Assembly (NCBI GenBank): GCA_016196755.1
Contig: JACPXC010000039.1
Coordinates: 10,645 to 74,644 of the forward strand
Direction of reading: 5' to 3'
DNA from: Elusimicrobiota bacterium
GTDB lineage: Bacteria; Elusimicrobiota; Elusimicrobia; UBA1565
Length of the DNA: 64,000 nt
Part shown: positions 6,088 to 39,386 of the stretch, piece after piece
How positions within the stretch are numbered: position 1 is the first letter of the stretch
Layout of the letters: every line of letters begins with the position of its first letter
Notes under the pieces: model-generated
What the model was told of the DNA's origin: nothing
Databases searched by the model: none
The model's input: only the letters and a program-made list of their open reading frames with translations
Translations under genes and position numbers: made by a program

Positions 6088-7407
6088 CTGAACTTCGACT
6101 CCTTCAAGCTCCACCCCCGCATCGCCGAAGGCCTCAAGCGGGCAGGCTACGAGACCCCGACGCCGATCCAGGCCCAGGCCCTTCCCATGGCCCTGGAGGG
6201 CCGCGACGTCCTCGGGCTGGCCCAGACCGGCACCGGCAAGACCGCCGCCTTCGCCCTGCCCATCCTCCAGAAGCTCATCGTGGGCCCGCGCGGCAAGGTC
6301 CGCGCCCTGGTCGTCGCCCCCACCCGCGAGCTGGCCGAGCAGATTCATACGACCTTCGAGACTCTGGGATTTCGCACCGGCCTGCGCAGCGCCACGGTCT
6401 ACGGCGGGGTCGGGATGCAGAAGCAGGAGCATGCCCTGCGCGGCCGCGCCGAGATCATCGTCGCCTGCCCCGGGCGCCTGCTCGACCACTGCGACCAGCG
6501 CATCGCGAACCTGACGGGGGTCGAGGTCCTGGTGCTCGACGAGGCCGACCAGATGTTCGACATGGGCTTCCTCCCCTCGATCCGCCGCATCGTCGCCCTG
6601 GTGCCGCGCCAGCGCCAGACCCTGCTGTTCTCGGCCACCATGCCCCAGGACATCCGGCACCTGGCCCATGAGTGCCTGCGCGACCCGGCCACGGTCCAGG
6701 TCGACCACGAGACCCCGCTGACCACGGTGACCCACGCCCTCTATCCGGTCAAGGAGCACCTCAAGGCCGCGCTCCTGCTCGAGCTGCTCAAGCACGCCGG
6801 CGAGGGCTCGGTCCTGGTCTTCACGCGCACCAAGCACCGGGCCAAGAAGCTCGGCCAGCGCGTGCAGGCGGCCGGCTACCGCGCCGAGTCCCTGCAGGGC
6901 AACCTGTCCCAGAACCGCCGCAAGGCGGTCATGGACTCCTTCCGCGACGGCTCGACCCAGGTCCTGGTCGCCACCGACATCGCCGCGCGCGGGATCGACG
7001 TCTCCCAGATCACCCACGTCATCAACTTCGACATACCGAACACCCCCGAGGCCTACACCCACCGCATCGGCCGCACCGGCCGGGCCGCCAAGACCGGGGA
7101 CGCCTTCACGCTGGTCACCGACGCCGACAACGAGATGGTGCGCGCCATCGAGCGGCGCATGGGCAAGCCCATCGAGCGCAAACGGCAGGAAGGCTTCGAC
7201 TACAACAAGGCCGGGGACGCCGCGCCGGCCCACAAGCCCGGCGGCCAGCACCACTCCCACGGGGGACAGCGCCATCACCAAGGGGGCGGGCAGCGCCAGC
7301 ACTCGGGAAGCGGGCAGGCTCCTTCCGGGGTTCACCGCCCCGCCGCTCCCAGCGGCCATCGCGGCGGCGGACACCGCCGTCGCCGGCGCGGACCCCGCCT
7401 AGGCTAG
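6088..7407 (+). CDS. DEAD-box ATP-dependent RNA helicase with His/Gly/Arg-rich C-terminal tail
   Basis: Track ORF 6187-7407 starts after the Q motif. The frame is open back to stop TAG 6076-6078 and encodes LNFDSFKLHPRIAEGLKRAGYETPTPIQAQALP (Q-motif region), then AQTGTGKT, VLDEADQMF, SAT and HRIGRTGR. The only candidate start is CTG 6088. Confidence 0.85.
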   Translation: MNFDSFKLHPRIAEGLKRAGYETPTPIQAQALPMALEGRDVLGLAQTGTGKTAAFALPILQKLIVGPRGKVRALVVAPTRELAEQIHTTFETLGFRTGLRSATVYGGVGMQKQEHALRGRAEIIVACPGRLLDHCDQRIANLTGVEVLVLDEADQMFDMGFLPSIRRIVALVPRQRQTLLFSATMPQDIRHLAHECLRDPATVQVDHETPLTTVTHALYPVKEHLKAALLLELLKHAGEGSVLVFTRTKHRAKKLGQRVQAAGYRAESLQGNLSQNRRKAVMDSFRDGSTQVLVATDIAARGIDVSQITHVINFDIPNTPEAYTHRIGRTGRAAKTGDAFTLVTDADNEMVRAIERRMGKPIERKRQEGFDYNKAGDAAPAHKPGGQHHSHGGQRHHQGGGQRQHSGSGQAPSGVHRPAAPSGHRGGGHRRRRRGPRLG

Positions 7408-8334
7408 TTCGGAGGTCGGGACGGCCGTGACCGTCACCCCGGCCTGAAGCTTCCCGTCCTCGTCCTGCAGTTGATCGGGTATCCAGGTCGCCGGCTGGGG
7501 CTTGTAGGCCACCTCGAGGAAGTTCCGACAGCCGGCGTCGAACGCCGCCCAGACCGCCTCGAAATGCCGCTCCAGGGCCGTCGGCTGCTTGGCCAGGAGC
7601 CGCTTGATCTCAGACGGGTCGGTCTCCTGCTTGCCCGAGGTGCCCATGAACACCGGGACCTTGGGCGGCTTCACCTCTATGCCCTCGAGCGCCTTCGTCA
7701 GCGCGGCCTCGCAGGAGGAGAAGGCCGGTGTGTGGTAGGGCCCCTCGACCTTGAGCAGCTTGACCTTGAACGGCAGGCCTTCGGCCGAGATCTTGGCGGC
7801 CATGGCTTCGAGGGCGGCCATCGTCCCCCCCGCCGTGCCGCGCCCGATCGTATTGTGCAGGGCCAGAGAGACGCCCGGGAAGTCGGAGATCTTATCGCCG
7901 AAGTCGGGCAGGTAGTCGGTAGAGACCGCCGCCAGACCCATCGGCTCCGAGAAGCTCTTGCAGGCGTCGGAGAAAGCCTGGGCACGCGCGCGGATAAAGG
8001 CGCCCGAATCCTCCACCGTCATCGCCTCGGCGGCCACCAAGGCCGCGGCGATACCCATAGAGTGGCCGATGGCACCGTCAAGCTCGAGGCCGGGGGTCCT
8101 CGCCTTGTAGGCGAAGAAGTTCCCGAGATGATGGGCGTGGATGGCTCGCTGGGCATTGAAGGTCAGGGCCAACTCGGGGTCCGGCATCGTCGTCGTCACG
8201 GCCTCGAGGTCCCCGCCCAAAGACGGCGTCAGGCGCTCGAGGACGGCACGCGCGGCGGGGAGCTTCCAGAGCTCGGAGCACATCCCGGCGGCCTGGACCG
8301 ACTGTCCGGCGAACATCACGCAGTGGCGGCTCAT
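7399..8334 (-). CDS. Malonyl-CoA:ACP transacylase-like acyltransferase (FabD-like)
   Basis: VMFAGQSVQAAGM near the N-terminus and the nucleophile elbow GHSMGIAAALVAAEA. Last gene of the lipid operon. Confidence 0.8.
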   Translation of the reverse strand: MSRHCVMFAGQSVQAAGMCSELWKLPAARAVLERLTPSLGGDLEAVTTTMPDPELALTFNAQRAIHAHHLGNFFAYKARTPGLELDGAIGHSMGIAAALVAAEAMTVEDSGAFIRARAQAFSDACKSFSEPMGLAAVSTDYLPDFGDKISDFPGVSLALHNTIGRGTAGGTMAALEAMAAKISAEGLPFKVKLLKVEGPYHTPAFSSCEAALTKALEGIEVKPPKVPVFMGTSGKQETDPSEIKRLLAKQPTALERHFEAVWAAFDAGCRNFLEVAYKPQPATWIPDQLQDEDGKLQAGVTVTAVPTSELA

Positions 8335-8343
8335 GTCGGGCTC

Positions 8344-9747
8344 CTATGAGACCATGAAGCTGTAGGCCGCGTAGCGGCCGGAGTGGGACAGGGACACCCC
8401 CCAGTCCTGCAGCTTGCCGCGGCGCAGGACCCGCGGCAGGCCGTCGTCCTCGCTGATCGCCAGGAGCGCCGCCGAAGGGATGTCGTCGGCCGATTCGGCG
8501 ATGAAGTCCAGCAGGCGCCGGCGCGCGAAATCGCCGGGATTCTCGCCGGAAGGCACCTCCTCCACGCGCCAGAGCACGTCGCCGGGCTGGTCGGCGTCGC
8601 CGACCGAACCGCCGCGCAGGACGGCCAGGCAGTGCACCTTGTCGTCGTCGGCGTCGGTGAAGGAGATGTCGGCCTGCGCCCCGGTCGGGCGGTGCAGGGC
8701 CTTGCGGCGGAACAGATCGACCTCGATCATCCGGAAGGCGCCGTGCGGGGTCATTATCCCGGCCTGGGTGAAGGCCTTGTGAGCGGCCTCCTTGGCCGCG
8801 AAGTACATCCAAAAGGTACGGAAGCGGGACCCTTTGAGCTGAGACGAGAAGTAGGATAGCTCCTTGGCGCTCAGATGGCGGGTCAGCCAATCCGTGTCGG
8901 CCTCGCCGCTTTCCAAATCGAAGTTCTCGCGGTGGCGCTCGGCGCCGAGGTCGACGACGTCGTTGCCCGCGCAGTTCTTGCTCAGGACGCTCCCCGCGAA
9001 CCAGCGCTCCTGGAGACCCGCCAGCACGGTGAAAAGCCGCTCGGAGACCGCTCGCGGGGTGGTCTCCCCCGGCAGGACGCCGTCGACGAGTTCGGCGTGC
9101 ATCCGGAACGCTTCGCCGCGGCGCGGCGCCACGGTGGCGAAGGTCTGACCCTCGCCGCGCAGGTACACGCAGAGGAACTTGGCCCCCGGCGTGGCCAGGG
9201 CCAAGCGGCCGAGGAAGTCCTTGGGCTTGCGGGAGTCCAGCCAGCCGTTGCGCGCCCGCCCGGCCTCGGGATAGACGAAGACCGAGCCGCCTTCCTTCAG
9301 GATCAGCGCGCACTTCTCGAAGGCGGCCTCGCGCCAGCGCACCGAGGCCTCGTCCTCGCCCTCGCGCAAGAACGGGATGCAGCGGCACAGATACATGAGC
9401 GTGCGCACCGCGGCGGCCTTGAGCGGCGAGCCCACCGCGTAGTAGTTCCGATACTCGGGGGTCGACCAGGGCAGGCGGTTGGCCTGTCCCGCCCGGCTCA
9501 TCGGGAACACCGCCCAGAAGACCAGGAAGGAGTCGATCATGGTCAGGTGGTTGGCCGCCCAGATGACCGGACCGGGGTGGGCGTCGAGCTTGGCCCAGAG
9601 CTCGGCGCGGAAGCGCTCGAGGTCCTTGAACGTATAGCCGAACCTGAGCCGCCCCATCGCTATGATGAGGGCGTAGGTCGGGTAGGCCAGGAGGCGGCTC
9701 CAGAGCGCCTGGCGGCGCAGCTGGGCCGTCTCCGCGGCGCTCAGCAC
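8344..9747 (-). CDS. Fusion protein: lysophospholipid/glycerol-phosphate acyltransferase (PlsC/LPLAT) domain + 4'-phosphopantetheinyl transferase domain
   Basis: N-terminal half: NHX4D motif (AANHLTMIDSF) and YPEAGR (FPEGTR-like). C-terminal half: GNDVVDLGAERH, FAAKEAAHKAF (W/FxxKEAxxK) and VSLSHSGRYAAYSF, all typical of PPTases. GTG start 9747-9745 overlaps the upstream stop by 7 nt. Confidence 0.75.
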   Translation of the reverse strand: MLSAAETAQLRRQALWSRLLAYPTYALIIAMGRLRFGYTFKDLERFRAELWAKLDAHPGPVIWAANHLTMIDSFLVFWAVFPMSRAGQANRLPWSTPEYRNYYAVGSPLKAAAVRTLMYLCRCIPFLREGEDEASVRWREAAFEKCALILKEGGSVFVYPEAGRARNGWLDSRKPKDFLGRLALATPGAKFLCVYLRGEGQTFATVAPRRGEAFRMHAELVDGVLPGETTPRAVSERLFTVLAGLQERWFAGSVLSKNCAGNDVVDLGAERHRENFDLESGEADTDWLTRHLSAKELSYFSSQLKGSRFRTFWMYFAAKEAAHKAFTQAGIMTPHGAFRMIEVDLFRRKALHRPTGAQADISFTDADDDKVHCLAVLRGGSVGDADQPGDVLWRVEEVPSGENPGDFARRRLLDFIAESADDIPSAALLAISEDDGLPRVLRRGKLQDWGVSLSHSGRYAAYSFMVS

Positions 9748-10634
9748 CCGGAGAGGCGGATCGTCTCGGAGAGCAGGGTGCGGATCTGCGCGACCTTGGC
9801 TTCCTCGGCCGCCGAGCGCTTGCCGGCCTGCGCCGCTACCTCGGCTGAGACGCGCAGCTTCGCCGCGCTCATCTTGAGGCGGGTCTTGATCTCGGCTTCC
9901 TCGGTGCGCAGGGCGGCGACGCGGCCGGCGTCGTTGGAGGTGGTGGCGCCGGCCAATTTGTCGACGGCCATGGTCAGCTCCGAGCTCAGCGCCTCGTGGG
10001 CGGCCTTGTCCGCGGCGTAGGACTTCTGACGCGCCTCGGCCAGCGCAGCGGGGTCGGCCAGGAGGGCCTCGTAGGCCAAGGCCTGCGCGGCCAGGGTCTT
10101 CACGTTGGCGGCGGCCTCGTCCTTCTCTACCCCGGTCAGCTTCTCGGCCCGGGAGACGGCCTTCTTCAAGGCCTCGTTCATCTTATGCCCGTCGCCGACG
10201 ACGCTGATGTAGGCGAAGGACACCACGCGCTCGAGATAGGCGGGGTCGGAGGCCATGTGGCCGAAGTCCATGAGCATCTTGACCGAGAGGCCGGGCGTGG
10301 CGGCCAGGGCGTCCTGGCCGTCGAGGATGCGCAGCTTGCCCAGCTCGCCGTCCTCGAGGCGGAATTCGCCGTTGGCGCCTACGGGCACGCGGGTGGTCTT
10401 CTTGGTCAGGAACTGGCGCTCGATCGACATCGTGATGTCGGCCAGGTTGCTCGACTCGATGCCCATGCCGATGATGTGGCCCAAAAACGGGGTGTTGGCG
10501 TCGGCCGAGGACCAGTTGGCCTCGTTGGTGGCGTACTTCTTGACCCCGGCGATGATCCGCTTCTCCGTCTCGGCGGCGTCGATCGTGTTGAGGTCCGTCG
10601 CCTCGATGACCGTCTCTTTGCGCTTAAAGGCCAT
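9741..10634 (-). CDS. ACP-like domain protein with long Ala-rich, probably coiled-coil, C-terminal extension
   Basis: Strong SD (AGGAGA) 5 nt before ATG 10634. Residues ~25-75 (EKRIIAGVKKYA...PFLGHIIGMGIESSNLADITMSIERQF) align by eye with the ACP helix II region [20 protein letters not shown]. The remaining ~200 aa are Ala/Glu/Lys-rich heptad-like sequence. Confidence 0.45.
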   Translation of the reverse strand: MAFKRKETVIEATDLNTIDAAETEKRIIAGVKKYATNEANWSSADANTPFLGHIIGMGIESSNLADITMSIERQFLTKKTTRVPVGANGEFRLEDGELGKLRILDGQDALAATPGLSVKMLMDFGHMASDPAYLERVVSFAYISVVGDGHKMNEALKKAVSRAEKLTGVEKDEAAANVKTLAAQALAYEALLADPAALAEARQKSYAADKAAHEALSSELTMAVDKLAGATTSNDAGRVAALRTEEAEIKTRLKMSAAKLRVSAEVAAQAGKRSAAEEAKVAQIRTLLSETIRLSGC

Positions 10635-10675
10635 GGTCGTCTCCTGGTGCTGATGATGTGACGCTATTTTACCAA

Positions 10676-11980
10676 TTATTCCCAGCGCTTAAAGAGCAGA
10701 CAGCCGTTGACGTCGCCGAACCCGAACGACGCCTTGATGACGTAGTCCAGCCGTTTCTGGATCATCTCATGCGGGATGCTGCCCGCGATCTTCTGGATCT
10801 CGGGGTGCACCGTCTCGCAGTTGATAGAGGGATGGACGTAGCCCTGGGACAGCTGGTCGATGGCGGCCACGGCCTCCAGGGCGCCGGCCGCGCCCAGTGT
10901 GTGGCCGATCATCGACTTGGTCGACTGGATGAGCGGGAACTTCTCGAGCGGGAGCTCCAGGGCCTTGATCCAGCTGCCCGCCTCGCGAGGATCGGCCCCG
11001 GTCGAGGTCAAATGGCCGTTGATGAGCGAGATGGCCGACGGGGAGACGCCGGAGTCCTTGAGCACGCGCCGGATGCAGCGCGCCACACCGTCGGGGTTCG
11101 GGAAGGTCATCGTCCCCCCGTCGCGCTGGCCGCCGGAGTTGCAGTAGGCCGCCACGAGCTCGCAGTGGATCTTGGCCCCGCGCTTCTGGGCCGATTCGAG
11201 GCTCTCGATCCTGAGCACCGCCGCGCCGCCGGCCGGGACGAAGCCGCAGGCCCCGGCCCCCATCGGCTGGGAGCCCTTGCCCGGCATCTCGTTGTACTTG
11301 GAGCAGAGCACGTCGCGCATGGCGTCGAACCCCGACCAGACGCCGTAGTGGGAGCCCTCGGCCCCGCCCACGAACATCGACTCGGCGTAGCCGAGCTGGA
11401 TGTGCTTGTAGCCCTCGAAGATGGCCTCGGTGCCGGTGTTGCAGGCCGAGCTGTTGGTCGTGGTCTGCCCGCCCAGCCCCAGGAACTTGCCCACCGCGAC
11501 GCTGACCGAGCTGCCCATGACCTTGGGGACGATGTCGGTGCCCATCGGCGCCGTGCCGCGGCCGGGCTCCTGCTCCTCGGCCTCGGCCATGACGGGCCCG
11601 AGCTCCTCGAAGATGGTGTCCATCCCGCCCACGCCGCAGCCGATGAAGGCGCCGGTGTCCCAATCCACGGGGGTGTTCTGGTAGCCCTTGAGGAGGTCGA
11701 CGGCCATCCCCGAGTCGCGCGCGCACTCCACGGCCGCCAAGGCAGCGTAGATCATGGCCTCGCTGAGCTTATGGTAGTCGGTCTGCGGGAGGACCTTGAG
11801 GATGTCGTCCTCCTCGATCGGCGGTGCCCCGCCGATCTGGCAGGCGAAATTGAGCTTCTTGAGCTGTTCGTGCCAGGTGATGCCGGACTTTCCGGCCTTG
11901 AGGGCGGCGCGATAGGCCGGCAGGCCCACGCCGTTGGGAGCGACCACGCCTAGACCGGTGACGACCACGCGCTTGCGCAT
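10676..11980 (-). CDS. Beta-ketoacyl-ACP synthase I/II (FabB/FabF-like elongating KAS)
   Basis: Track ORF 10676-12256 trimmed to ATG 11980-11978 (MRKRVVVTGLGVVAPNG). Active-site region NSSACNTGTEAI, then GHLTSTGADP and GHTLGAAGALE. The start shares one nt with the upstream stop (TGATG). Confidence 0.9.
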   Translation of the reverse strand: MRKRVVVTGLGVVAPNGVGLPAYRAALKAGKSGITWHEQLKKLNFACQIGGAPPIEEDDILKVLPQTDYHKLSEAMIYAALAAVECARDSGMAVDLLKGYQNTPVDWDTGAFIGCGVGGMDTIFEELGPVMAEAEEQEPGRGTAPMGTDIVPKVMGSSVSVAVGKFLGLGGQTTTNSSACNTGTEAIFEGYKHIQLGYAESMFVGGAEGSHYGVWSGFDAMRDVLCSKYNEMPGKGSQPMGAGACGFVPAGGAAVLRIESLESAQKRGAKIHCELVAAYCNSGGQRDGGTMTFPNPDGVARCIRRVLKDSGVSPSAISLINGHLTSTGADPREAGSWIKALELPLEKFPLIQSTKSMIGHTLGAAGALEAVAAIDQLSQGYVHPSINCETVHPEIQKIAGSIPHEMIQKRLDYVIKASFGFGDVNGCLLFKRWE

Positions 11981-12468
11981 CAAAACCCTCCCGAGCCCTT
12001 GGGGACGAACATCCCCGCCGTCCTGCCGCTGAAGATCTCCTCTCCGTCCTTCGGCCCGCCCATGAACTGGATCTCGACGCTGCTGACCAGCTTGTTGCCG
12101 CGGAAATAGCCGTCCTCGCCGAACCGAGCCATCGCGGCCACCCTGTCGCCGGGCTTGACCACCTTCTTGAAGACCCCGCGCTCGATGTCGGTGAAGAAGC
12201 CCACCATCTGGCGGATCTCGTCGGGGGTGTTGGTCTTGGCCAGGTGGAAGATGCACCAGGCCACGCTGCCGACCTGGGCCGCCATCTCGATGAGCTTTAC
12301 CCCGGGGACGACCGGGTAGCCGGGGAAGTGCCCGTCGCAGTCCTCTTGCTTCCAGGTGTAGGTCGCCAGGATGTGCTCGTCGTCGAGCTCTAGGATCTCG
12401 TCGACGAAGCGCATCGGGCGCGCCTGCGGCACCATCGCCAGCACTTCCGCGGGGGTCATGGGCTTCAT
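11980..12468 (-). CDS. FabZ-like 3-hydroxyacyl-ACP dehydratase (single hotdog)
   Basis: RFVDEILELD...GHFPGYPVVPGVKLIEMAAQ is the FabZ-type catalytic His motif. Confidence 0.85.
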   Translation of the reverse strand: MKPMTPAEVLAMVPQARPMRFVDEILELDDEHILATYTWKQEDCDGHFPGYPVVPGVKLIEMAAQVGSVAWCIFHLAKTNTPDEIRQMVGFFTDIERGVFKKVVKPGDRVAAMARFGEDGYFRGNKLVSSVEIQFMGGPKDGEEIFSGRTAGMFVPKGSGGF

Positions 12469-13193
12469 AACGCCATCCCCCCGTCCACCGCGATGACGGT
12501 CCCGTTGGCGAAGTCGTTCTCGATGAGGTGGGCCACGGCCTGGGCCACGGCCTCCGGGGCGCCGAAGGAGCCCAGCGCCACCTGGGCCATGATCTTCTCG
12601 CGCATCTCGGGGGCTATGCCGTCGGTCATCGCGGTCTCGATGAAGCCCGGCGACACCGCGTTGACGCGCACGCCGCGCGGGCCCAGCTCGAAGGCGAACT
12701 GCAGGGTCAGCGCCTCGAGCGCGGCCTTGGAGGCGCGGTAGAGCGCGCTGCCGACCAGGGCCTTGCGGGCCAGGATCGAGCTGACGTTGACGATGACGCC
12801 GGAACCCGCCGAGGCCATCTCCTTGCCGAAGTCGCGCATCAGGAAGGCCGGGCCCTTGAGGTTGACCGAGACCAGCGAGTCGAAGCTGGTCTCCTGGATC
12901 ATCAGCGCGGGCTCGTGCGGGCGGTCGGTGCCCGCGTTGTTGACCAGGACGTACGGGGCGCCTTGGGCGAGGACGGCATCGAGCAGGCTCTTGCGTCCCG
13001 CCTCGGAGGAGAGGTCGGCGCGGACGATGAAGGAGTCCGGGATCTCGGCCCTGAGGGCCTCGGCCGCGGCCTGGTTGCCGTTGTAATGCAGGGCCAGGCG
13101 CAGTCCGCCCTCGCTCTTCTGGTGGATCAGCTTGGCCGTGGCCCGGCCGATGCCGCCCGAGGCTCCCGTCACGACGGCGATGTCCTTAGGCAT
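12465..13193 (-). CDS. 3-oxoacyl-ACP reductase (FabG-type SDR)
   Basis: Track ORF 12465-13853 trimmed to ATG 13193-13191 (MPKDIAVVTGASGGIGRATA). NNAG, and YRASKAALEAL (YxxxK). Overlaps neighbours at both ends (4 nt and 1 nt). Confidence 0.9.
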   Translation of the reverse strand: MPKDIAVVTGASGGIGRATAKLIHQKSEGGLRLALHYNGNQAAAEALRAEIPDSFIVRADLSSEAGRKSLLDAVLAQGAPYVLVNNAGTDRPHEPALMIQETSFDSLVSVNLKGPAFLMRDFGKEMASAGSGVIVNVSSILARKALVGSALYRASKAALEALTLQFAFELGPRGVRVNAVSPGFIETAMTDGIAPEMREKIMAQVALGSFGAPEAVAQAVAHLIENDFANGTVIAVDGGMAL

Positions 13194-14323
13194 CAAGCCC
13201 TCACCATGAGTTTCCCGCCGCGGCCCATGACCCCGTCGACCGGGTAGTCGCAATAGCGGATGTTCTTGTGGCAGCCCACGTTGGCGTTGGCCATGGCGAG
13301 GACGCGCCGCCCGTCGGCGAAGACCTCGGCGTCGGCGCGCGCGAAGGCGTCGCCGGTCTGCGGGGCCTTGAAGTACTTGAGGATCTTGAGCTTGTAGACG
13401 AGCTCCGCGTCCTTGGGCGTCACCGCGCCGAAGAGCTCGACGCGCTCGAACCCCAGCGCCCGGCCGGTGCCGGCGTTGCCGGCCCAGGCGAGGAACATGC
13501 CGAGCAGCTGCCAGACCCCGTCCACCAGGAGCGCGGCGGGCTTGCTCCCGCCGCTCATCGGGAAGAACCACTCGGTAGGCGCGTTGGCGCGCGTGGCGAG
13601 GATCTCGCCCTCGCCGGCCGCCTCGTCGAAGGCGATGCGGCGCACGTCGCGGACCTCGAGCATCAGCGAGTCTGGCAGGAGTCCCATCTCCCCGGCCGGG
13701 TCCTTGACCAAAGTCCCGCGCGAGAGGGCGATGATCTCCGGATGGGAGAACGCGCTCCGGCCGGTGAACTCGGCGGCGGAGAGCGGCGCCCGGTAGGCGG
13801 CCTCGGGGGCAGGCGGCACGGCGCCTAGGACGGATTTCGACTCGTCCTGCCAATAACCCGTCCCGACCGCGGCCGAGGCTATCGTGTAGACCGGCACGCC
13901 GTCGACGGACACGGAGGCCTTGCCGGTGACCATAGCCTCGCCGCCGTCGCGCTCGATGGACAGGACGTCCACCGCGTAGACGACCTCTTTGTCATACGGG
14001 CGGATCTGGCCGAAGAACGAGACGCCCTCCATCCCCATCGGCTTGTCGCAGGCGGGCAGGCCGCGCCAAGCCGCGAAAAGGCGCAGGGCCTGCCAGACGG
14101 CGTCCACGCCCCAGCAGCCGGGCATGACCGGGTCGCCGAGGAAATGGCAGCCGTAGAACCAGTCGTCGACGCTGTTGCGGCGCACGGCCTCGATGCGCCC
14201 GGTGCCGGCGGCCTCGTCCCATGCCAGAACCCGCACCGAGTGGAAGGGCAGGAGCAGCGCGCGCGGCAAAGTGCCCGCCTCGGCCATGGCGAGGAGCTCG
14301 GTCTCGCCCATGACGGCGCTCAC
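13193..14323 (-). CDS. FabA-type dehydratase/isomerase hotdog fused to a second, apparently catalytically degenerate hotdog
   Basis: Track ORF 13193-14941 trimmed. GTG 14323-14321 overlaps the upstream TGA (GTGA); ATG 14311 is an alternative. N-terminal half has WFYGCHFLGDPVMPGCWGVDAVWQ (FabA active-site signature). C-terminal half has WFFPMSGGSKPAALLVDGVWQLLGMF, which lacks the His and DPVMPG. Confidence 0.8.
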   Translation of the reverse strand: MSAVMGETELLAMAEAGTLPRALLLPFHSVRVLAWDEAAGTGRIEAVRRNSVDDWFYGCHFLGDPVMPGCWGVDAVWQALRLFAAWRGLPACDKPMGMEGVSFFGQIRPYDKEVVYAVDVLSIERDGGEAMVTGKASVSVDGVPVYTIASAAVGTGYWQDESKSVLGAVPPAPEAAYRAPLSAAEFTGRSAFSHPEIIALSRGTLVKDPAGEMGLLPDSLMLEVRDVRRIAFDEAAGEGEILATRANAPTEWFFPMSGGSKPAALLVDGVWQLLGMFLAWAGNAGTGRALGFERVELFGAVTPKDAELVYKLKILKYFKAPQTGDAFARADAEVFADGRRVLAMANANVGCHKNIRYCDYPVDGVMGRGGKLMVRA

Positions 14324-15324
14324 GCCAGGGCCTCCATGTAGCCGCCCCCCCAGGCCAGACCGGAGCCGAGGACGGCGTAGACCAGCTGGTCGCCCTTCTT
14401 GAAGCGCCCCATGTTCTGGGCGATGACCGACGGACAGCCGGCGGCGGCGATGTTGCCCTGCTCGCGGACGTTGCGCAGGTGGCGCTCCGCGGGAAGGCTG
14501 AGATGGCCGAGGATCGAGTCCTGCATGACATGGTTGGCCTGATGGGCCACGGTGTAGACGCCCTCGGCGTAGAGGCCCTTGGCCGCGGCGATCGACTCGT
14601 ACATCTCGCAGGTCTTGCGGATGGAGAACTCGCGCACCATGGCGCCGTTCTGCGCGAAATGGCCCGCGCTGTCGATGATGATGTCGTCGGCGCCGCCCGG
14701 GGCGGTCTCGAAGATCATCGGTTCTACCGAGAGCTTGCCGGGACGCCGCGCCGACATCACCTCGGCGGCGGCGCCATCGCCCCAAATGTAGCCGTCGAAC
14801 GAGTCCGGGGAATAATCGGTACGCACCGTATACGCGCTGGCCTGCACGCACAACACGACCTCGGGCATTCGGTCCGGGCGCATGTCGGCCAACAGCTTCA
14901 TGTGTCGGGCGAAGCTCGAGCAGGCGCTGTTGACGTCGCAATGCGGGCCGGGGCCGATCCCCAGGGCCTTGGCGATGAGCGCCGCGCTGCTCGGGATCGT
15001 CTCGAAGGGGGTGTCGTTGTTGGCGATGACCCAGCCGACTTCCTCGGCCTTGACCCCCGCGTCGGCCAGGGCGCGCCGGGCGGCCTCCGCTCCCAAGGAC
15101 ACAGGGGTCTCGCCGCGCGCGCGCGCGTGCAGGATGGCCTGGGCGGGGTCGGCGTTCTTGGTCTGCTTGATGTAGTCGCGGCTCAGGACGGAGTAGCGCT
15201 TCTGGATGCCCAGGCGCGAATCCACCCAGTCCTGGCCGCGCTTGAGTCCGACCTCCCGCTGGAGGAAGTCGTTGGTGATCTCGGTGGCGGGGAGGGCCCA
15301 GCCCATCCCCAGGATCTGCAGCAT
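14320..15324 (-). CDS. Beta-ketoacyl-ACP synthase III (FabH-like initiating KAS)
   Basis: Track ORF 14320-15606 trimmed to ATG 15324-15322 (MLQILGMGWALP). Cys-His-Asn regions: DVNSACSSFA, VAHQANHVM, GNIAAAGCP. Confidence 0.85.
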   Translation of the reverse strand: MLQILGMGWALPATEITNDFLQREVGLKRGQDWVDSRLGIQKRYSVLSRDYIKQTKNADPAQAILHARARGETPVSLGAEAARRALADAGVKAEEVGWVIANNDTPFETIPSSAALIAKALGIGPGPHCDVNSACSSFARHMKLLADMRPDRMPEVVLCVQASAYTVRTDYSPDSFDGYIWGDGAAAEVMSARRPGKLSVEPMIFETAPGGADDIIIDSAGHFAQNGAMVREFSIRKTCEMYESIAAAKGLYAEGVYTVAHQANHVMQDSILGHLSLPAERHLRNVREQGNIAAAGCPSVIAQNMGRFKKGDQLVYAVLGSGLAWGGGYMEALA

Positions 15325-16310
15325 CAGACTCCGGAGACCGCCTCGCCGCCGTCGACCCGGATGACCTCGCCGTTGGCCCAGGCGAAGCCGGGCAGGCAGA
15401 GCGAGAGGATCGCCTCGGCCACGTCCTCGGGCGTGGTCAGACGGTGGAAGGGGTTGCGCAGGCGGGCCTGCGCCTTCATGAGGTCGAAGTTCGGGATGGC
15501 GTTGCCGGCCGGGGTGTCGGTGATGCCGGCCTGGACCACGTAGGAGCGCACGCCGTAGGGCGCCAGCTCGACGGCCATCGCGCGGCAGGAGGCCTCGAGC
15601 GCGCACTTGGCCGCCGAGACCGCGGCGTAGCCCTTCCAGGCGATCTCATTGCCCTCGGAGGTCATCGCCACCATGCGGGCGTCCTTGGTCAGCAGGCCCG
15701 CGTTGGAGAGCTCCCGCGCCCAGAGCAGGTAGTCGTAGCCCATCATCCAGACCGTGCGCTGGAGGTCCTCCTCGCTGAGGAGTTCCTCGCGGTACGGGAT
15801 CCTGCTGTCGGCCAGCGTATAGAGGGCGTCGCAGCCCTTCTGGTGGAAGGCGGCGTTCACGGCCCGCTTGAGGACGTCGGGCTCCACGGAGGCGCCCTCG
15901 GCCTTGAGGGACTCGGCCAGCCCGCGCAGGGCGATCCCTTTGAAGTCCGGGGTCTTATCCTCGGCGATCAGCTTGCAAGAGCCGGCGGCGATCGAGTGCA
16001 TGAACAGGTGCACCTTCCCGGCCCCGGCCTTCTCGGCGATGCTCTCGAATACCGTCCCGCGCTCCTCGTCGTCGAAAAGGTTGGCGTTGTGGGTGACGAG
16101 GGACACCCCGGCGGCCCGAATCTCGTCGAAATGCGGCTTGATGACGGTCTCGACGGTCCCTTCCTTGTCCTTATGGGCGATGAGGATGTTGAGGCCTTCC
16201 CGGGCCAAGCGCTTGGCGGCGGCCAGGCCGAAGCCGGAGGACCCCCCCAAAATGACGCCCCAAAGGCCTTTTCCGCGGAATACACCGGTTTCTTGGTTCA
16301 TTCTTGTCAT
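15324..16310 (-). CDS. Enoyl-ACP reductase of the SDR type (FabI/FabL/FabV-like)
   Basis: VILGGSSGFGLAAAKRLA nucleotide-binding region; WKGYAAVSAAKCALEASCRAMAVEL (Y-x6-K as in FabI/FabL). First gene of the lipid operon. ATG 16301 is an alternative start. Confidence 0.7.
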   Translation of the reverse strand: MTRMNQETGVFRGKGLWGVILGGSSGFGLAAAKRLAREGLNILIAHKDKEGTVETVIKPHFDEIRAAGVSLVTHNANLFDDEERGTVFESIAEKAGAGKVHLFMHSIAAGSCKLIAEDKTPDFKGIALRGLAESLKAEGASVEPDVLKRAVNAAFHQKGCDALYTLADSRIPYREELLSEEDLQRTVWMMGYDYLLWARELSNAGLLTKDARMVAMTSEGNEIAWKGYAAVSAAKCALEASCRAMAVELAPYGVRSYVVQAGITDTPAGNAIPNFDLMKAQARLRNPFHRLTTPEDVAEAILSLCLPGFAWANGEVIRVDGGEAVSGV

Positions 16311-16321
16311 GGATTATACGT

Positions 16322-16359
16322 AAAAAAACGGGCGGGAGGCGCTGCCGCCCCCCCGCCCG
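16322..16359 (-). terminator. Rho-independent terminator downstream of ppiC-like gene
   Basis: On the minus strand, stem CGGGCGGG (16359-16352) pairs with CCCGCCCG (16336-29), followed by TTTTTTT (16328-16322). Confidence 0.7.
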
Positions 16360-16379
16360 CCTTTCCGACCAACGCCGGA

Positions 16380-16664
16380 CTAAGCCGTGCGGCTGATGAC
16401 CTGGATGAGATGGTAGCCGAACTGCGTCTTGACCGGCCCTTGGACCGACATCGGGTCGGCCGAGAAGCAGACTTTGTCGAACTCGGGGACCATCGCCCCC
16501 TTGCCAAACGAGCCCAGGTCGCCGCCCGACTTGCCCGAGGGGCAGGAGGAGTGCTTCTTGGCCAGCTCGCCGAAATCGGCGCCGCCTTCGATCTGCTTCA
16601 TGAGGTCCTTGCAGTCCGCTTCCGTCTTGACCAGAATGTGCCGCGCGTGAGCCGTTGCCGCCAT
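16380..16664 (-). CDS. Parvulin-type peptidyl-prolyl cis-trans isomerase (PpiC-like)
   Basis: [55 protein letters not shown]...GYHLIQV is the classic small parvulin pattern. GGAGGA SD before ATG 16664. Confidence 0.9.
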
Positions 16665-16686
16665 AGTGTCCTCCGGTGTCAGCAGT

Positions 16687-16764
16687 TGGTGTCAGTCTTT
16701 CGGATGTTTCGGAAGTTTGCAAAAAACTCAGCGAACTTCCGAAACATCCGAAAGACTGACACCA
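16687..16764. repeat. 31-bp perfect inverted repeat (hairpin with 16-nt loop) between a secreted-protein gene and ppiC
   Basis: Arm GGTGTCAGTCTTTCGGATGTTTCGGAAGTT (16688-16717) is the exact reverse complement of 16734-16763. The pair 16687/16764 also matches. Loop TGCAAAAAACTCAGCG. Confidence 0.9.
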
Positions 16765-16769
16765 GAAGC

Positions 16770-17309
16770 TTACAACAGTTTGAAGGAACGGAGGAACGCC
16801 TGCCAGGCCTTCTCCCCCTTGCCCGAGGGGTCGGGCAGGGGGTTCTCGTCGCGGTAGCTCAGGACGAAGAAGCGGCCTTTCACCGGCACCAGGAGGAAGC
16901 GTTCCTCGGATAGCGCCGGGGAGCCGCCCGGAGCATGCGGGTCGCCGTCGAGCGAAGGAACCCCGCGCTTATACATGGGGTAGGCCTTGCCGGAGATTCT
17001 CGTCCGTCCTATCCCCTCAGGGGGGCGGCCCATCGTCGAAGCGGCCGGCGAAGCGAGGAAGGCGTCGGGGACGGAGTATTCCGAGCCCTTCCCGCCGAAG
17101 AGCCGCACCGAGATCAGAACGCCCGCCCGGGTCAGCTCCAGCGCCGCGTCCTGCCCTTTGGCCCGGCGCTCGACGGTCCAGCCGGCGGGAGCCTTATAGC
17201 CGGCCAAGGCCTCGATCGCGCCCTTCTTCTCTTTCACGGCAGGCTCCTTGGCCTCCAGGCCCGAGGCCAGGAGCAAGAGCGCGGCGGCGGCCAGGCGCGC
17301 CGCGCTCAT
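16770..17309 (-). CDS. Small secreted hypothetical protein
   Basis: C-terminal part of track ORF 16770-18842, trimmed to ATG 17309-17307 (MSAARLAAAALLLLASGLEA is signal-peptide-like). ATGA overlap with the upstream gene stop. Confidence 0.6.
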   Translation of the reverse strand: MSAARLAAAALLLLASGLEAKEPAVKEKKGAIEALAGYKAPAGWTVERRAKGQDAALELTRAGVLISVRLFGGKGSEYSVPDAFLASPAASTMGRPPEGIGRTRISGKAYPMYKRGVPSLDGDPHAPGGSPALSEERFLLVPVKGRFFVLSYRDENPLPDPSGKGEKAWQAFLRSFKLL

Positions 17310-18898
17310 GGCCAGTGCCCCGGGTTCTCGCGGCGGTCCTTGTTGTACATGGCGGAAAGCTCCGCGCGGGAGACTTGTCCGGGCGCCGGCGGGGCGAAGG
17401 ACTCGCCGCGCGGCTTGCCCCGGGTGAGCTCGGCCAGGCGCCGCCGGCGCTCCGCCAGCTCGCGCTCGGCGTCCCCGAAGAACGGCCTGGCGGCATCCGC
17501 CGCCATGCGCTTGAGGACCGCCTTTCCCGCGTCCGTCCCATAATAGTCGACGTAGCTCTGGACGTAGGTGGAGATGTTCCCCAGCGTCGTCTCGCGCGCC
17601 GGCGCGGTGACCGATACGTAGTTGCCGATGTCCTGCCGGATCGAGGCGAACGACTCCGCCTTGAGTCCGTGGCTCTTGACGAAATGGTCGATGATGGGCA
17701 GCCAGGACTTCTGCGCCGCTACCTGCTCGGGAACCTGCGCCTTGGCGGCGTCGGCGGCCGCGCGGCGGTCGCGCAGGACCGGCAGCGGGTCGGCCAGCTC
17801 GGAGACGCTGAAGGTGGCCGCGTAGTACGGCAGGTTGGTCTTGAGCCCCCGGTGGTAGGCCTCCGGGTCGGCGAGATAGTTCCACATGTGCCCGTTGGTC
17901 AGCTTGACCCCGCGCTCGGCGTCGACCAGCCAGCCGACCAGGCCCGCCCCGGCCTCGTTGTCGCGGTAGGAGAGGTAGGTATCGTGCACCCCGGCCTTCT
18001 TGGCCTCGAGGGCCCCCAGGCCGTGCCCGAGCAGCTCGTGGCCCAGGGTACCCGGGAGATAGGAGGCGCGAAAATCCGCGTCGGTGCCGAGGTAGTCGCG
18101 GTTGAGGCGGACGTGGACCATCTCCCCCGAGGAGTCGGTGCTCCCCCCCGAGGACTCGATGATCTTCTTGCCGTTGACGTCGATTACCTTGGAATTGGCC
18201 ACCGGCTCGAAGGAGACGCGGACCTTCTTGCCGGTCTTGATGAGGCGCTCGGCCAAAGCCTGGGCCGTCGGGCTCTCCAGCATGCGCGCGATGGCAAGGT
18301 CGAGCTCGGCCCGCTCGTTCGGATTGCCGTGGTCGATGAGCTCGAGCTGGGGCTTTAAACGGTCGATGAGGGCGGGCTCGGCGGGCTTGAGCCCCGCGGG
18401 CGGCTTCCCCCCCGGTCCGCGGCCCGTACGCGGCTCGGGCTGGGGGACGCGCCCGAGGCGCGTCGGGTTGAGCAAGGCCAGGAACTCGCGGTCCCGCTCG
18501 GCCAGCATCGGGCCGCGTTCCCAGAACAAGGTCAGCGCCAGGTCGCGGTCGGCCTGGGTCAGCGTCCCGTCCTTCTCTTTTTCGCGCAGGGCGGCTACGA
18601 CCTTCTCGCCATGGGCCCGGAAGAGCAGGTGGGCGCCCTCGTTGCTGAGCAGGTGGCCCGGCTCGGTCGGGGCGAGCGTGGAATCGGATAGATGGTCGGC
18701 GGCCAGGCGATAGCGGCCGCCCTCGTATTCGGCCAGGAAGGCCTTCTCGGATTCGAGGACCCCCGGAGGCACACGCGCGTCGAACGGGGCGTCCGGGACG
18801 GGGTTCTCGGGGACAGGAGCCGCGGGGTCGCAGAAGAGGCACGCGCGCGCCGCCGGTCCGAGGAAGGCCAGCGCCAAAGCCAACGCTAATCGGGGCAT
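17306..18898 (-). CDS. Secreted or lipoprotein-like hypothetical protein with HELLGH motif
   Basis: Track ORF 17306-18940 trimmed to ATG 18898 (MPRLALALALAFLGPAARAC). Coding-like composition throughout. The motif GTLGHELLGHGLG is HExxxH, not a canonical zincin HExxH. Confidence 0.6.
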   Translation of the reverse strand: MPRLALALALAFLGPAARACLFCDPAAPVPENPVPDAPFDARVPPGVLESEKAFLAEYEGGRYRLAADHLSDSTLAPTEPGHLLSNEGAHLLFRAHGEKVVAALREKEKDGTLTQADRDLALTLFWERGPMLAERDREFLALLNPTRLGRVPQPEPRTGRGPGGKPPAGLKPAEPALIDRLKPQLELIDHGNPNERAELDLAIARMLESPTAQALAERLIKTGKKVRVSFEPVANSKVIDVNGKKIIESSGGSTDSSGEMVHVRLNRDYLGTDADFRASYLPGTLGHELLGHGLGALEAKKAGVHDTYLSYRDNEAGAGLVGWLVDAERGVKLTNGHMWNYLADPEAYHRGLKTNLPYYAATFSVSELADPLPVLRDRRAAADAAKAQVPEQVAAQKSWLPIIDHFVKSHGLKAESFASIRQDIGNYVSVTAPARETTLGNISTYVQSYVDYYGTDAGKAVLKRMAADAARPFFGDAERELAERRRRLAELTRGKPRGESFAPPAPGQVSRAELSAMYNKDRRENPGHWP

Positions 18899-18976
18899 CA
18901 CCCTAAGGATAGGCGCGGACCTGGATTCGTCAGGGGTCAAGAGACCTAGTAGACCCGGACCGGAAGGACTACGGAC

Positions 18977-22478: not shown

Positions 22479-22931
22479 CTAAAGGCCGGCGGCTTTGAGC
22501 TGCTCGGGGGAGAGCCGGGCGAAGGACGCCTCGGCCTCGGCGTAGAAGCCGCCCCGGGAGTCGACTAGGCGGCTGGTGACGAAGACGAGCCGGCGGTGCT
22601 CGCGGACGATGTCGGTCTCGACGTGCAGGTTCACCGACAGCGGGACCGCGCGGCGGAAGGCGGCCGAGATGCGCGCCGTGAGGACCGGCCAGCCGCGCAC
22701 CCAGCAGGCCGCGCCCATAGCCTCGTCGAGGACGGTGAGGACCGCGCCTCCGTGCGCGCGCCTCGGAGCACCCTCGGCATGGGGCCCGAAGCGCACCTTG
22801 GCGATGAGCGGACCGTCCTTGCCGCGGCGCTGGTAGCGCAGCGCGATGCGTTCGGCCTCGAGGATGCCCCCCGTGAACGTGCGCTCGGCCTTGCTGTTCG
22901 GGAACGGGCTGACGTCGACTAAGTCGTTCAC
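22479..22931 (-). CDS. PaaI/YbgC-type hotdog thioesterase
   Basis: RRAHGGAVLTVLDEAMGAACW matches the PaaI-type HGG...D motif. 150 aa. Confidence 0.75.
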   Translation of the reverse strand: MNDLVDVSPFPNSKAERTFTGGILEAERIALRYQRRGKDGPLIAKVRFGPHAEGAPRRAHGGAVLTVLDEAMGAACWVRGWPVLTARISAAFRRAVPLSVNLHVETDIVREHRRLVFVTSRLVDSRGGFYAEAEASFARLSPEQLKAAGL

Positions 22932-23985: not shown

Positions 23986-24288
23986 ATGAAACGGGAGCTC
24001 GCTAGGATCCGCGTCGGCATCGACGCCGTCGACAACGGCCTGGTGCGCCTGCTGGCGCGCCGGCGCGCCCTCGCCCTGCGCCTGGCCCGGGTCAAGGCCG
24101 GGCTCGACATGCCGATCTACGACCGCGTCCGTGAGGAGGCCCTGTTCAAGCGCGTGAAGGCCTGGGGCGCCGGCCGCGGCCTCGACGCCGAGTTCGTCGA
24201 GGTCCTCTTCCGCCTCATCGTCATGAACTCGAAGGAAGTCCAATATCATGAGAACCTCGGCCAGGGCGCGCGCCGCCGCCGGGTCTGA
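23986..24288 (+). CDS. AroQ-class chorismate mutase (monofunctional)
   Basis: MKRELARIRVGIDAVDNGLVRLLARRRALALRLARVK...PIYDRVREEAL is the typical CM_2 helix pattern. TAGAAT at 23971-23976, 9 nt before the ATG. Confidence 0.85.
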   Translation: MKRELARIRVGIDAVDNGLVRLLARRRALALRLARVKAGLDMPIYDRVREEALFKRVKAWGAGRGLDAEFVEVLFRLIVMNSKEVQYHENLGQGARRRRV

Positions 24289-39309: not shown

Positions 39310-39386
39310 GATCACCACCCCCCGGATGATCCAAGGATGCATCGGCGCGTTCGTCTTCGCAAAGCCCCAAAGGGCCCGCATTGGCT

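Follow-up and report, generated by a model that had tools for sequence, protein, structure and literature searches.

A conserved Elusimicrobiota operon that may encode the main type II fatty acid synthase of its clade on a non-canonical carrier

Is a nine-gene operon that encodes fatty acid synthase enzymes of type II (FAS II) the main fatty acid synthesis system of its lineage or a pathway to a specialised lipid, and which of its products carries the acyl chain? The question is raised by a locus in a 64,000-nt stretch of DNA (the window) from a groundwater Elusimicrobiota bacterium. The first-pass annotation had placed nine minus-strand genes here in the order of Table 1 (g1 to g9), and had described them as a self-contained ‘secondary lipid’ synthase with links to PUFA synthases, with the fallback that they might be the lineage's only FAS II. 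The gene content and order were borne out, and gene calls made independently on two Logan contigs that cover this DNA gave the same genes, with the enoyl reductase (ER) started at the second ATG (16301, 325 aa) and FabA at a GTG (14323, 376 aa). Examination of the whole window revealed no other FAS genes.

Table 1. Positions of the operon genes and adjacent features in the window
Feature	Position	Strand	Basis or detail
Operon	7399–16310	−	nine genes
ppiC, upstream neighbour	16380–16664		
Intrinsic-terminator-like hairpin 3′ of ppiC	16322–16353	−	stem 16353–16334, T-run 16328–16322
TATAAT hexamer	16313–16318	−	2 nt upstream of first ATG, 11 nt upstream of second ATG
g1, SDR enoyl-ACP reductase, FabL/FabI-like	15324–16310	−	Pfam/NCBIfam and motif
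g2, KAS III, FabH-like	14320–15324	−	Pfam/NCBIfam and motifs
g3, FabA-type double hotdog	13193–14323	−	Pfam/NCBIfam, PDB, motifs
g4, FabG-type 3-ketoacyl reductase	12465–13193	−	Ser, Y-x3-K
g5, FabZ-like single hotdog dehydratase	11980–12468	−	His47 and Glu61 present
g6, KAS I/II elongating condensing enzyme	10676–11980	−	Cys-His-His
g6/g7 intergenic gap, 41 nt	10635–10675	−	AGGAGA Shine-Dalgarno 6 nt 5′ of g7 start
g7, candidate acyl carrier, 297 aa	9741–10634	−	putative carrier function
g8, LPLAT/PlsC-family acyltransferase and AcpS-type phosphopantetheinyl transferase (PPTase) fusion	8344–9747	−	Pfam/NCBIfam and motifs
g9, FabD-like malonyl-CoA:carrier transacylase	7399–8334	−	GQS, GHSMG, Arg, His

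The genes are tightly packed. Six of the eight junctions are overlaps, where seven had been counted; in order of transcription we find overlaps of 1, 4 (GTGA), 1, 4 and 1 nt, then a gap of 41 nt, one further overlap (7 nt) and a last gap of 9 nt. The GTGA overlap precedes g3 and goes with a GTG start for that gene. The 41-nt gap separates the KAS I/II gene from the ACP-like gene and, contrary to the first description, does not precede the KAS I/II gene; g7 is the only operon gene with a clear Shine-Dalgarno sequence. A DEAD-box helicase gene converges on g9 and overlaps its 3′ end by 9 nt. The terminator-like hairpin and the TATAAT described upstream of g1 are both present, but no −35 partner was found for the hexamer and a promoter search called no sigma-70-like promoter.

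Pfam and NCBIfam searches support every domain call except that of the ACP-like 297-aa protein, which has no match. They assign g1 to SDR/enoyl reductases, g2 to KAS III, g3 to FabA (twice), g4 to FabG-type SDRs, g5 to FabZ/FabA hotdogs, g6 to ketoacyl-synt (N and C), g8 to Acyltransferase plus ACPS and g9 to Acyl_transf_1. As in the canonical FAS II of E. coli and B. subtilis, each step has a discrete protein of its own, and the catalytic residues agree: Cys-His-Asn for KAS III (motifs ACSSF, HQAN and GNIAAAG), Cys-His-His for KAS I/II, GHSxG for FabD, Y-x3-K for FabG, Y-x6-K for the ER (Y228-x6-K235) and, for the hotdogs, His/Glu or His/Asp. Both also have a PPTase of the AcpS type and an acyltransferase of the LPLAT family (PlsC). 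The catalytic residues are kept in 36–57 orthologues per core gene and in 8 FabA orthologues.

In contrast to canonical systems, the operon unites all of the genes, its AcpS is fused to the acyltransferase, its ER has an insert of ~80 residues (about 118–198), its FabA links two hotdogs covalently and keeps one active site intact, and its putative carrier has 297 residues, goes unrecognised by PF00550 and bears both an inserted hairpin and a tail that forms a basic helical bundle. Except for FabA, the enzymes also score far under the NCBIfam equivalog cut-offs of housekeeping FAS II: 112 against 292 for FabH, 86 against 261 for FabD, 168 against 298 for FabG, 56 against 155 for FabZ and 267 against 494 for FabF, with g6 roughly equidistant from FabF and FabB. 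FabA alone passes its equivalog model (NF003509, 196 bits against a cut-off of 124). Scores this far under equivalog cut-offs are typical of paralogous, specialised systems.

A scan of genome contigs revealed that the operon is syntenic in 62 species-level Elusimicrobiota loci, with the conserved order ER, KAS III, (FabA), FabG, FabZ, KAS, g7, g8 and FabD. The nine-gene arrangement is not a matter of chance, since the same order recurs in these 62 other genomes. The pairwise-identity vectors of ER, FabG, KAS, g7, g8 and FabD correlate with r = 0.80–0.94, which indicates that these six genes are co-inherited; for FabZ and KAS III, paralogues have turned over between lineages. A distant relative (40% GC, 31–43% identity) has the gene order unchanged and encodes a 1833-aa fused biotin carboxylase/BCCP/carboxyltransferase (acetyl-CoA carboxylase) directly 3′ of FabD. 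Within a subclade of 49–51% GC, the g7/g8/FabD trio lies among the core genes tol-pal, pth, prs and glmU, and the trio stays linked where other operon genes are elsewhere. We found no thioesterase, tailoring or export genes conserved alongside the operon in the window and annotated relatives, and no second KAS, FabD or canonical ACP in 1.11 Mb of related-locus flanks, a small genome sample.

On balance, we consider it somewhat probable that this operon is the main type II FAS of the clade, operating on a non-canonical carrier and inherited vertically. The earlier fallback, that it is the lineage's only FAS II, fits better than the PUFA or secondary-lipid framing because conservation is deep and vertical, tailoring and export genes are lacking, and a carboxylase is adjacent in the distant relative. 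On this reading, a canonical FAS II or AcpP would be absent elsewhere in the genome.

The strongest competing explanation, which we regard as unlikely, is a private specialised lipid pathway beside a canonical AcpP-based FAS II encoded elsewhere. The divergent carrier and its co-evolved enzymes would insulate it from the housekeeping FAS, and the LPLAT would place one particular kind of acyl chain, such as an unsaturated, very long or otherwise unusual one, on a specific lipid. The sub-equivalog scores of all enzymes but FabA, the dissimilarity of g7 to any known AcpP and the turnover of FabZ and KAS III paralogues agree with such a pathway, and possession of a PPTase and an acyltransferase of its own is typical of dedicated pathways. 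That a second type II system can be complete and use an extended ACP also has a precedent: FAS-II of mycobacteria (fabD-acpM-kasA-kasB, mabA-inhA, hadABC) has its own FabD and a carrier, AcpM, with a C-terminal extension past the ACP fold. However, AcpM clearly belongs to PF00550 and its extension has ~35 residues, and the mycobacterial system only elongates FAS-I products and has no PPTase-acyltransferase fusion. The private pathway is opposed by the deep vertical conservation, by the absence of conserved tailoring, thioesterase and export genes, by the carboxylase that adjoins the operon in the distant relative and by the flank survey, small as its sample is. Moreover, the set includes FabD, ER and KAS III, which dedicated clusters normally borrow.

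The claim of self-containment holds, as the operon encodes its own candidate carrier, FabD-type loader, AcpS-type PPTase and LPLAT, the last two fused in g8. The LPLAT half (PF01553, E = 1.4e-8) has intact LPLAT/PlsC-family H-x4-D (H67-x4-D72) and E-G-x-R (PEAGR) motifs; in sets of 27 and 55 sequences, NH67LTxID72 and PEAGR show no or almost no variation. The PPTase half matches PF01648 with 27 bits against a cut-off of 25, scores under the TIGR00556 and TIGR00516 cut-offs, and conserves GNDVVDL, KEAxxKA and SLSHSG, in accordance with the AcpS-type motifs G-x-D, K-E-A-x-x-K and S-x-S-H. We identified 161 homologues of the fusion (56–83% identity), and all of those with organism names derive from Elusimicrobia/Elusimicrobiota MAGs. 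No earlier description of an LPLAT-AcpS fusion was found in the literature searched.

The product of g7 is an undescribed 300-residue protein. Its N-terminal domain (1–140) contains an invariant GMGIES(S/A)NLADITMSIERQF motif with a putative pantetheine-bearing Ser61, as well as a beta-hairpin insert, and the C-terminal part (about 140–294), more than half of the protein, is a basic five-helix bundle. Mean pairwise identity over the full length is 0.70, which exceeds that of most operon enzymes, and mean column identity of the N-domain is 79%. The orthologue in the complete genome CP096137.1 (UPT75794.1) is annotated as ‘hypothetical protein’. Among 32 members searched, there was no Pfam match, including PF00550, even at E ≤ 10. 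PDB sequence searches gave no match and Foldseek none that was significant, and the 23 relatives among 1.84 billion representative proteins include no ACP. The protein is thus no small acidic PF00550 AcpP; its N-domain is mildly acidic (pI 5.2, compared with 4.05 for E. coli AcpP) and, modelled alone, reaches a low-confidence pLDDT of 48.

We propose that g7 probably stands in for the acyl carrier protein, given its context, the invariance of the GIES motif and profile matches that are weak (P = 0.005). A typical ACP is a four-helix bundle whose pantetheine-bearing Ser opens helix II within a G-x-D/E-S motif. Profile-profile alignment (hhalign) to manually entered sequences of canonical ACPs placed Ser61 on ACP Ser36 with P = 0.041 and then 0.0054, and spanned helices I–IV with the hairpin taken as an insert. 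In addition, when 10,969 ORFs were ranked with an ACP HMM, a g7 homologue came first, aligned in the same register. Nearly all bacteria have AcpP, so the prior against its replacement is strong; the protein is among the most conserved and most connected that they possess.

Alternatively, g7 may be a helical bundle that has a structural or scaffold role or binds lipid, perhaps in association with membranes or lipids, and the enzymes may use a canonical AcpP from elsewhere, served by the PPTase domain of g8. The absence of a significant ACP match by sequence or fold, the marginal homology statistics (P = 0.005–0.04) and the size of the basic bundle, for which Foldseek gave soluble helical-bundle proteins as weak neighbours below significance, are in keeping with this idea. 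We nevertheless judge it quite improbable: Ser61, with which a predicted helix (61–74) begins, does not vary within the family, nor do the helix II-like residues around it, even in a 37%-identical member, and the Ser-on-Ser register is identical in three independent alignments. Furthermore, g7 lies between the KAS and PPTase genes, translationally coupled, in all 62 loci and the distant relative, and it keeps its link to g8 (which it overlaps) and FabD even where the other operon genes are elsewhere.

The FabA-type protein was one basis of the proposed link to PUFA synthases. Its N-terminal half keeps His56 and Asp70, and its C-terminal half keeps the Asp (LVDGVWQ) and has lost the His. The nearest PDB relatives of the domain are free-standing proteobacterial FabA proteins, and only ~10 of the 62 loci have the gene within the operon, while the others have it at a different locus, all of which speaks against that link. 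There is also similarity to the anaerobic unsaturated-fatty-acid branch of E. coli (FabA/FabB): the N-terminal hotdog retains FabA's catalytic string, CHFxGDPVMPGC ... GxDAxWQ, and passes NF003509, and g6 resembles FabB and FabF equally. However, g3 is a fused pseudo-dimer, the host lineage is not proteobacterial, and the gene is missing from the operon in most relatives. In addition to its role as a dehydratase, g3 could possibly act as a 3-hydroxydecanoyl-ACP isomerase towards cis-unsaturated chains.

A dissociated Pfa-type, PUFA-synthase-like or aryl-polyene-type secondary-lipid cluster is largely refuted and very improbable, even though the FabA/pseudo-FabA pair resembles the DH-DH′ units of PfaC, Pfa systems have a dedicated PPTase, the AGPAT domain at the end of myxobacterial Pfa synthases delivers the product directly into lipid, and the FabZ-like protein has weak ApeP/ApeI-like Pfam matches in precomputed annotation. 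Pfa synthases are multidomain and type I-like and use ACPs in tandem, KS-CLF, an ER of the PfaD type and a PPTase of the Sfp type, whereas here we find discrete single-function FAS II proteins, an SDR ER without any PfaD-type family match and an AcpS-like PPTase; PfaA (KS-MAT-ACPn-KR), PfaC (KS-CLF-DH-DH), PfaD-type ER and Sfp-type PfaE are all missing. NCBIfam PfaA matches are KS or AT fragments of 29–58 bits against a cut-off of 1010. The operon architecture also differs from that of the pfaA-like ‘Type R’ cluster reported for Elusimicrobium minutum, KS-MAT-CLF-ACP(3-6)-KR plus a PPTase (Shulse & Allen 2011, PMC3098273). As for aryl polyenes, there is one KAS I/II and no CLF pair, the presence of an ER makes a polyene product less likely, and the accessory genes are not conserved: AMP-ligase, MMPL and LolA-like genes were not seen in the window and annotated relatives, and glycosyltransferases occur sporadically in unrelated flanks (for example at locus L066), none travelling with the operon. 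No orthology to a Pfa or aryl-polyene cluster was found.

If the operon is the main FAS II of the clade, we envisage that the AcpS-like half of g8 would place phosphopantetheine on Ser61 of g7, FabD would load malonate onto this carrier, and KAS III would prime the chain. KAS I/II, FabG, FabZ and the SDR ER would run the elongation cycle, with FabA as an extra dehydratase in this genome and possibly as the isomerase branch to cis-unsaturated chains. The membrane-anchored LPLAT half of g8 would then transfer the acyl chain from the carrier to an acceptor, presumably a glycerolipid.

We suggest, tentatively, that these Elusimicrobiota are a free-living diderm clade without conventional AcpP in which all acyl-carrier chemistry runs on a new carrier class. 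This clade would comprise at least 62 species genomes (49–73% GC) and the 40%-GC outlier. The carrier would combine an ACP-like fold, a beta-hairpin insert and a fused basic five-helix bundle, would serve fatty acid synthesis, phospholipid acylation and lipid A acyl supply, and would be activated by an AcpS domain fused to the very acyltransferase that unloads it. Because the g7 orthologue checked is labelled as hypothetical, automatic annotation reports an ACP-less FAS in these genomes. AcpP is the hub for the FAS II enzymes, which are antibiotic targets. A hub apparently replaced or duplicated by a 300-residue protein, with all partner enzymes in the operon diverged along with it, would show the reach of carrier-partner co-evolution, and synthetic biology would gain an orthogonal FAS II toolkit.

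The nine co-oriented minus-strand genes at window 7399-16310 described by the first-pass annotation (g1 to g9, numbered in transcription order) are real, and the genes called on two Logan contigs that carry this DNA concur, differing solely in starts (the second ATG for g1, giving 325 aa; a GTG for g3, giving 376 aa). Seven overlapping junctions had been claimed and we count six; in transcription order, the first five junctions overlap by 1, 4, 1, 4 and 1 nt, the sixth is a gap of 41 nt, the seventh an overlap of 7 nt and the eighth a gap of 9 nt. The 41-nt gap, placed at first before the KAS gene, in fact precedes g7 and includes an AGGAGA Shine-Dalgarno sequence 5' of that gene. The terminator of ppiC (stem 16353-16334 plus a T-run) and the TATAAT, 2 nt 5' of the first ATG, are present as annotated; no -35 element partnering the TATAAT was found. 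The 3' end of g9 overlaps a DEAD-box helicase gene convergently by 9 nt. The GC content of the window is ~70%, third-position GC is high throughout g1 to g9, and no other FAS genes were found in the rest of the 64-kb window. The sequencing runs containing the window are of groundwater metagenome DNA only, and there was no RNA evidence of expression.

Genes of the operon, with positions in the window, basis of assignment and conserved residues or motifs
Gene	Product	Position	Strand	Basis	Conserved residues or motifs
g1	SDR enoyl reductase (ER)	15324-16310	-	Pfam/NCBIfam	Y228-x6-K235
g2	KAS III	14320-15324	-	Pfam/NCBIfam	Cys/His/Asn
g3	FabA double hotdog	13193-14323	-	Pfam/NCBIfam	
g4	FabG	12465-13193	-	Pfam/NCBIfam	Ser, Y-x3-K
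g5	FabZ-like	11980-12468	-	Pfam/NCBIfam	His/Glu
g6	KAS I/II	10676-11980	-	Pfam/NCBIfam	Cys/His/His
g7	297-aa protein	9741-10634	-	Pfam: no match	
g8	LPLAT-PPTase fusion	8344-9747	-	Pfam/NCBIfam	LPLAT half: H67-x4-D72, PEAGR; PPTase half: GNDVVDL, KEAxxKA, SLSHSG
g9	FabD-like	7399-8334	-	Pfam/NCBIfam	GQS, GHSMG, Arg, His

Every domain call of the first-pass annotation is backed by Pfam and NCBIfam matches, and the catalytic residues are intact and conserved (36-57 orthologues per core gene; 8 for FabA). FabA alone scores above an equivalog threshold (196 bits vs 124 for NF003509); scores against the NCBIfam models for FabH, FabD, FabG, FabZ and FabF reach 35-57% of the respective cut-offs. Alignment of the ER with B. 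subtilis FabL falls into two blocks, with an ~80-residue insert between them, and g6 is about as close to FabB (181 bits) as to FabF (195 bits), with PKS ketosynthases further away (~120 bits). The N-terminal hotdog of g3 retains the FabA His and Asp and the C-terminal hotdog the Asp only, which gives g3 a single predicted composite active site, as expected of a covalent FabA pseudo-dimer. A PDB sequence search with g8 returned no match.

We propose that g7 is probably the acyl carrier of this system. At every locus the gene has KAS on one side and the gene with the PPTase domain on the other; it overlaps the latter by 7 nt and has the clearest ribosome-binding site of the operon. Residues 1-140 show 79% mean column identity, above the enzymes; the string GMGIES61(S/A)NLADITMSIERQF is invariant in the family, and Ser61 is kept even in a 37%-identical member. 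In the full-length AlphaFold model (pLDDT 78.9), the predicted N-part has one helix at 20-32 and, after a long loop, a second at 61-74 that begins exactly at Ser61, then a beta-hairpin (75-100) and a third helix (114-123); the predicted C-part is a basic five-helix bundle. Profile-profile alignment with six canonical ACPs, which serve as a yardstick only, placed Ser61 on the ACP pantetheine Ser, and a more diverse g7 alignment covered ACP helices I-IV with the hairpin as an insertion (P = 0.0054). When an HMM of these six ACPs was run unfiltered against 10,969 six-frame ORFs of all loci, a distant g7 homologue ranked first in the same register, at a non-significant E-value of 1.

Against a carrier role, Pfam searches with g7 and 32 N-domains gave no PP-binding match at E <= 10, and the g7 profile, run against PDB sequences, gave only non-significant coiled-coil or helical matches. 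Foldseek with the full-length model found nothing at E <= 0.001 (the best matches were helical bundles such as AhlC), and the N-domain modelled alone was of low confidence (pLDDT 48) and its matches were meaningless. The N-domain profile had 23 HMMER matches among 1.84 billion representative proteins, all of them g7 family members bar a tandem-repeat artefact (P0262) and a 107-aa fragment (P0263); no ACP was found among the examined relatives (all 23 but P0263). Weighing these negative results with the position, ribosome-binding site, conservation, invariant Ser61 string, predicted helix and ACP alignments, we consider a non-carrier role of g7 unlikely.

Scanning a single genome for each GTDB species, we recovered 62 loci, with GC contents from 49% to 73%. 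Their labels are mostly Elusimicrobia or Elusimicrobiota, with one Acidobacteriota, one 'Candidatus Endomicrobium trichonymphae' and several given only as 'bacterium'. The g8 fusion has 161 homologues (56-83% identity), and all organism-named ones are Elusimicrobia/Elusimicrobiota MAGs. The closest species-level relative of the operon (L001, JAKOVQ010000017.1; 67-84% identity, 73% GC) was deposited as an Acidobacteriota MAG, and the contig is probably mislabelled or mis-binned Elusimicrobiota. By tblastn, the order ER, KAS III, FabG, FabZ, KAS, g7, g8 is kept, with FabD adjoining or a few kb downstream; inserted genes separate FabD from g8 by 2-7 kb in many relatives (L063, L002, L003, L017, L020 and L027). 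The insert at L063 (11397-16212) consists of small unknown ORFs along with genes for a class-I aminotransferase and a kinase/TPR protein. Two KAS III genes occur at 4 loci. Within a 49-51% GC subclade, only g7, g8 and FabD remain together, among tol-pal, pth, prs and glmU. The pairwise-identity vectors of ER, FabG, KAS, g7, g8 and FabD correlate at r = 0.80-0.94; paralogue turnover accounts for the lower correlations of KAS III (about 0.6) and FabZ (0.3-0.5). An origin as a horizontal island was rejected, given that the cluster GC (0.67-0.70) agrees with that of the window and the genes co-vary across the clade.

One locus (L063) lies in a complete genome, CP096137.1, where the g7 orthologue is labelled 'hypothetical protein' by NCBI. 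The ER is called there as two ORFs of 181 and 141 aa (L063 4554-5521), with a frame change at ~residues 119-154. Since the isolate has a name similar to a nanopore flow-cell ID, the split may reflect an indel in the assembly and not a pseudogene.

FabA lies within the operon at only about 10 of the 62 loci. The double hotdog has 179 homologues, all organism-named ones from Elusimicrobia/Elusimicrobiota, and adjoins PFOR when outside the operon. At two such loci (L064 10001-11673 and L065 10001-11676), it overlaps by 4 nt a 163-aa FabZ-like gene whose product has the catalytic His replaced (GYTPDG vs GHFPGYP), and the pair also lies beside a response-regulator/4HBT-thioesterase fusion.

A distant relative with 40% GC (L069), whose proteins are 31-43% identical to those of the window, has the same gene order, g7 included. 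The dehydratase slot is occupied by a 207-aa protein without a Pfam match. Directly 3' of the FabD-like gene is an 1833-aa fused acetyl-CoA carboxylase (13652-19153; biotin carboxylase, BCCP and carboxyltransferase), and a further 10 kb of the contig encodes chemotaxis proteins and kinases, none lipid-related.

The window also encodes a 2513-aa protein (28859-36400, minus strand) with a polysaccharide deacetylase domain, four DUF4082, many Kelch repeats and Big_2, followed by a weak PorV/UPF0164-like gene (27984-28964, minus); the pair resembles a giant surface protein and a T9SS-like partner. A 2644-aa ORF (39978-47912, plus; coding-type third-position GC 0.94) has no Pfam match, nor have two minus-strand ORFs upstream of it (36502-37842 and 37957-39381). 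A 500-aa protein (59738-61240, minus) combines YscJ/FliF_C with FliG_M and FliG_C and thus looks like a FliF-FliG fusion; nearby are a MotB-like OmpA protein and two response regulators (54632-55390, plus, and the 52928-54009 region, plus). An aromatic amino-acid group (24248-27961) comprises a class I/II aminotransferase, prephenate dehydrogenase, prephenate dehydratase-ACT and a convergent DAHP synthase. The stand-alone 4HBT-family thioesterase gene located 6 kb upstream of the operon (22479-22931, minus) is not conserved with it.

Given these analyses, we lean towards the operon being the main type II FAS of the clade. The first-pass description of it as self-contained is borne out. A main membrane-lipid FAS is favoured indirectly by the presence of every function, FabD, ER, KAS III, AcpS and a PlsC-type transferase included, which dedicated clusters usually borrow, and further by deep vertical inheritance with strong purifying selection, by the core-genome context in the 49-51% GC subclade and at one other locus, by the acetyl-CoA carboxylase beside the operon in the distant relative and by the lack of tailoring or export genes; no thioesterase, tailoring enzyme or exporter was conserved with the operon among the loci examined. 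Alternatively, though with clearly lower probability, it may be a parallel specialised system beside a canonical FAS II. To our knowledge, canonical AcpP is near-universal in bacteria, a strong prior against the main-FAS reading. Nearly all the enzymes fall under housekeeping equivalog thresholds, which fits a private paralogous system and co-evolution with the carrier equally. Related loci totalling 1.11 Mb, a sample far too small for exclusion, showed no canonical ACP and no second KAS or FabD. A Pfa-type or aryl-polyene pathway is very improbable. Multidomain proteins, tandem ACPs, CLF and Sfp-type PPTase are all absent, PfaA model matches are fragments only, and no PfaD-type ER match was returned; the presence of an ER and the absence of CLF and the exporter set speak against an aryl-polyene cluster. 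The architecture is also unlike that of the pfaA-like 'Type R' cluster reported in Elusimicrobium minutum.

The operon would work like a canonical type II FAS with AcpS and PlsC but lacks two of its features, equivalog-level similarity and a PF00550 carrier. In the literature searched, we found neither the operon nor the LPLAT-AcpS fusion nor the carrier described; the nearest analogy is the mycobacterial FAS-II with AcpM, a complete type II system whose carrier is extended. Overall, the PUFA-like 'secondary lipid' proposed at first does not hold, and the fallback of that annotation, a FAS II of the lineage's own, fits better, with the non-canonical candidate carrier as the most interesting feature of the operon.
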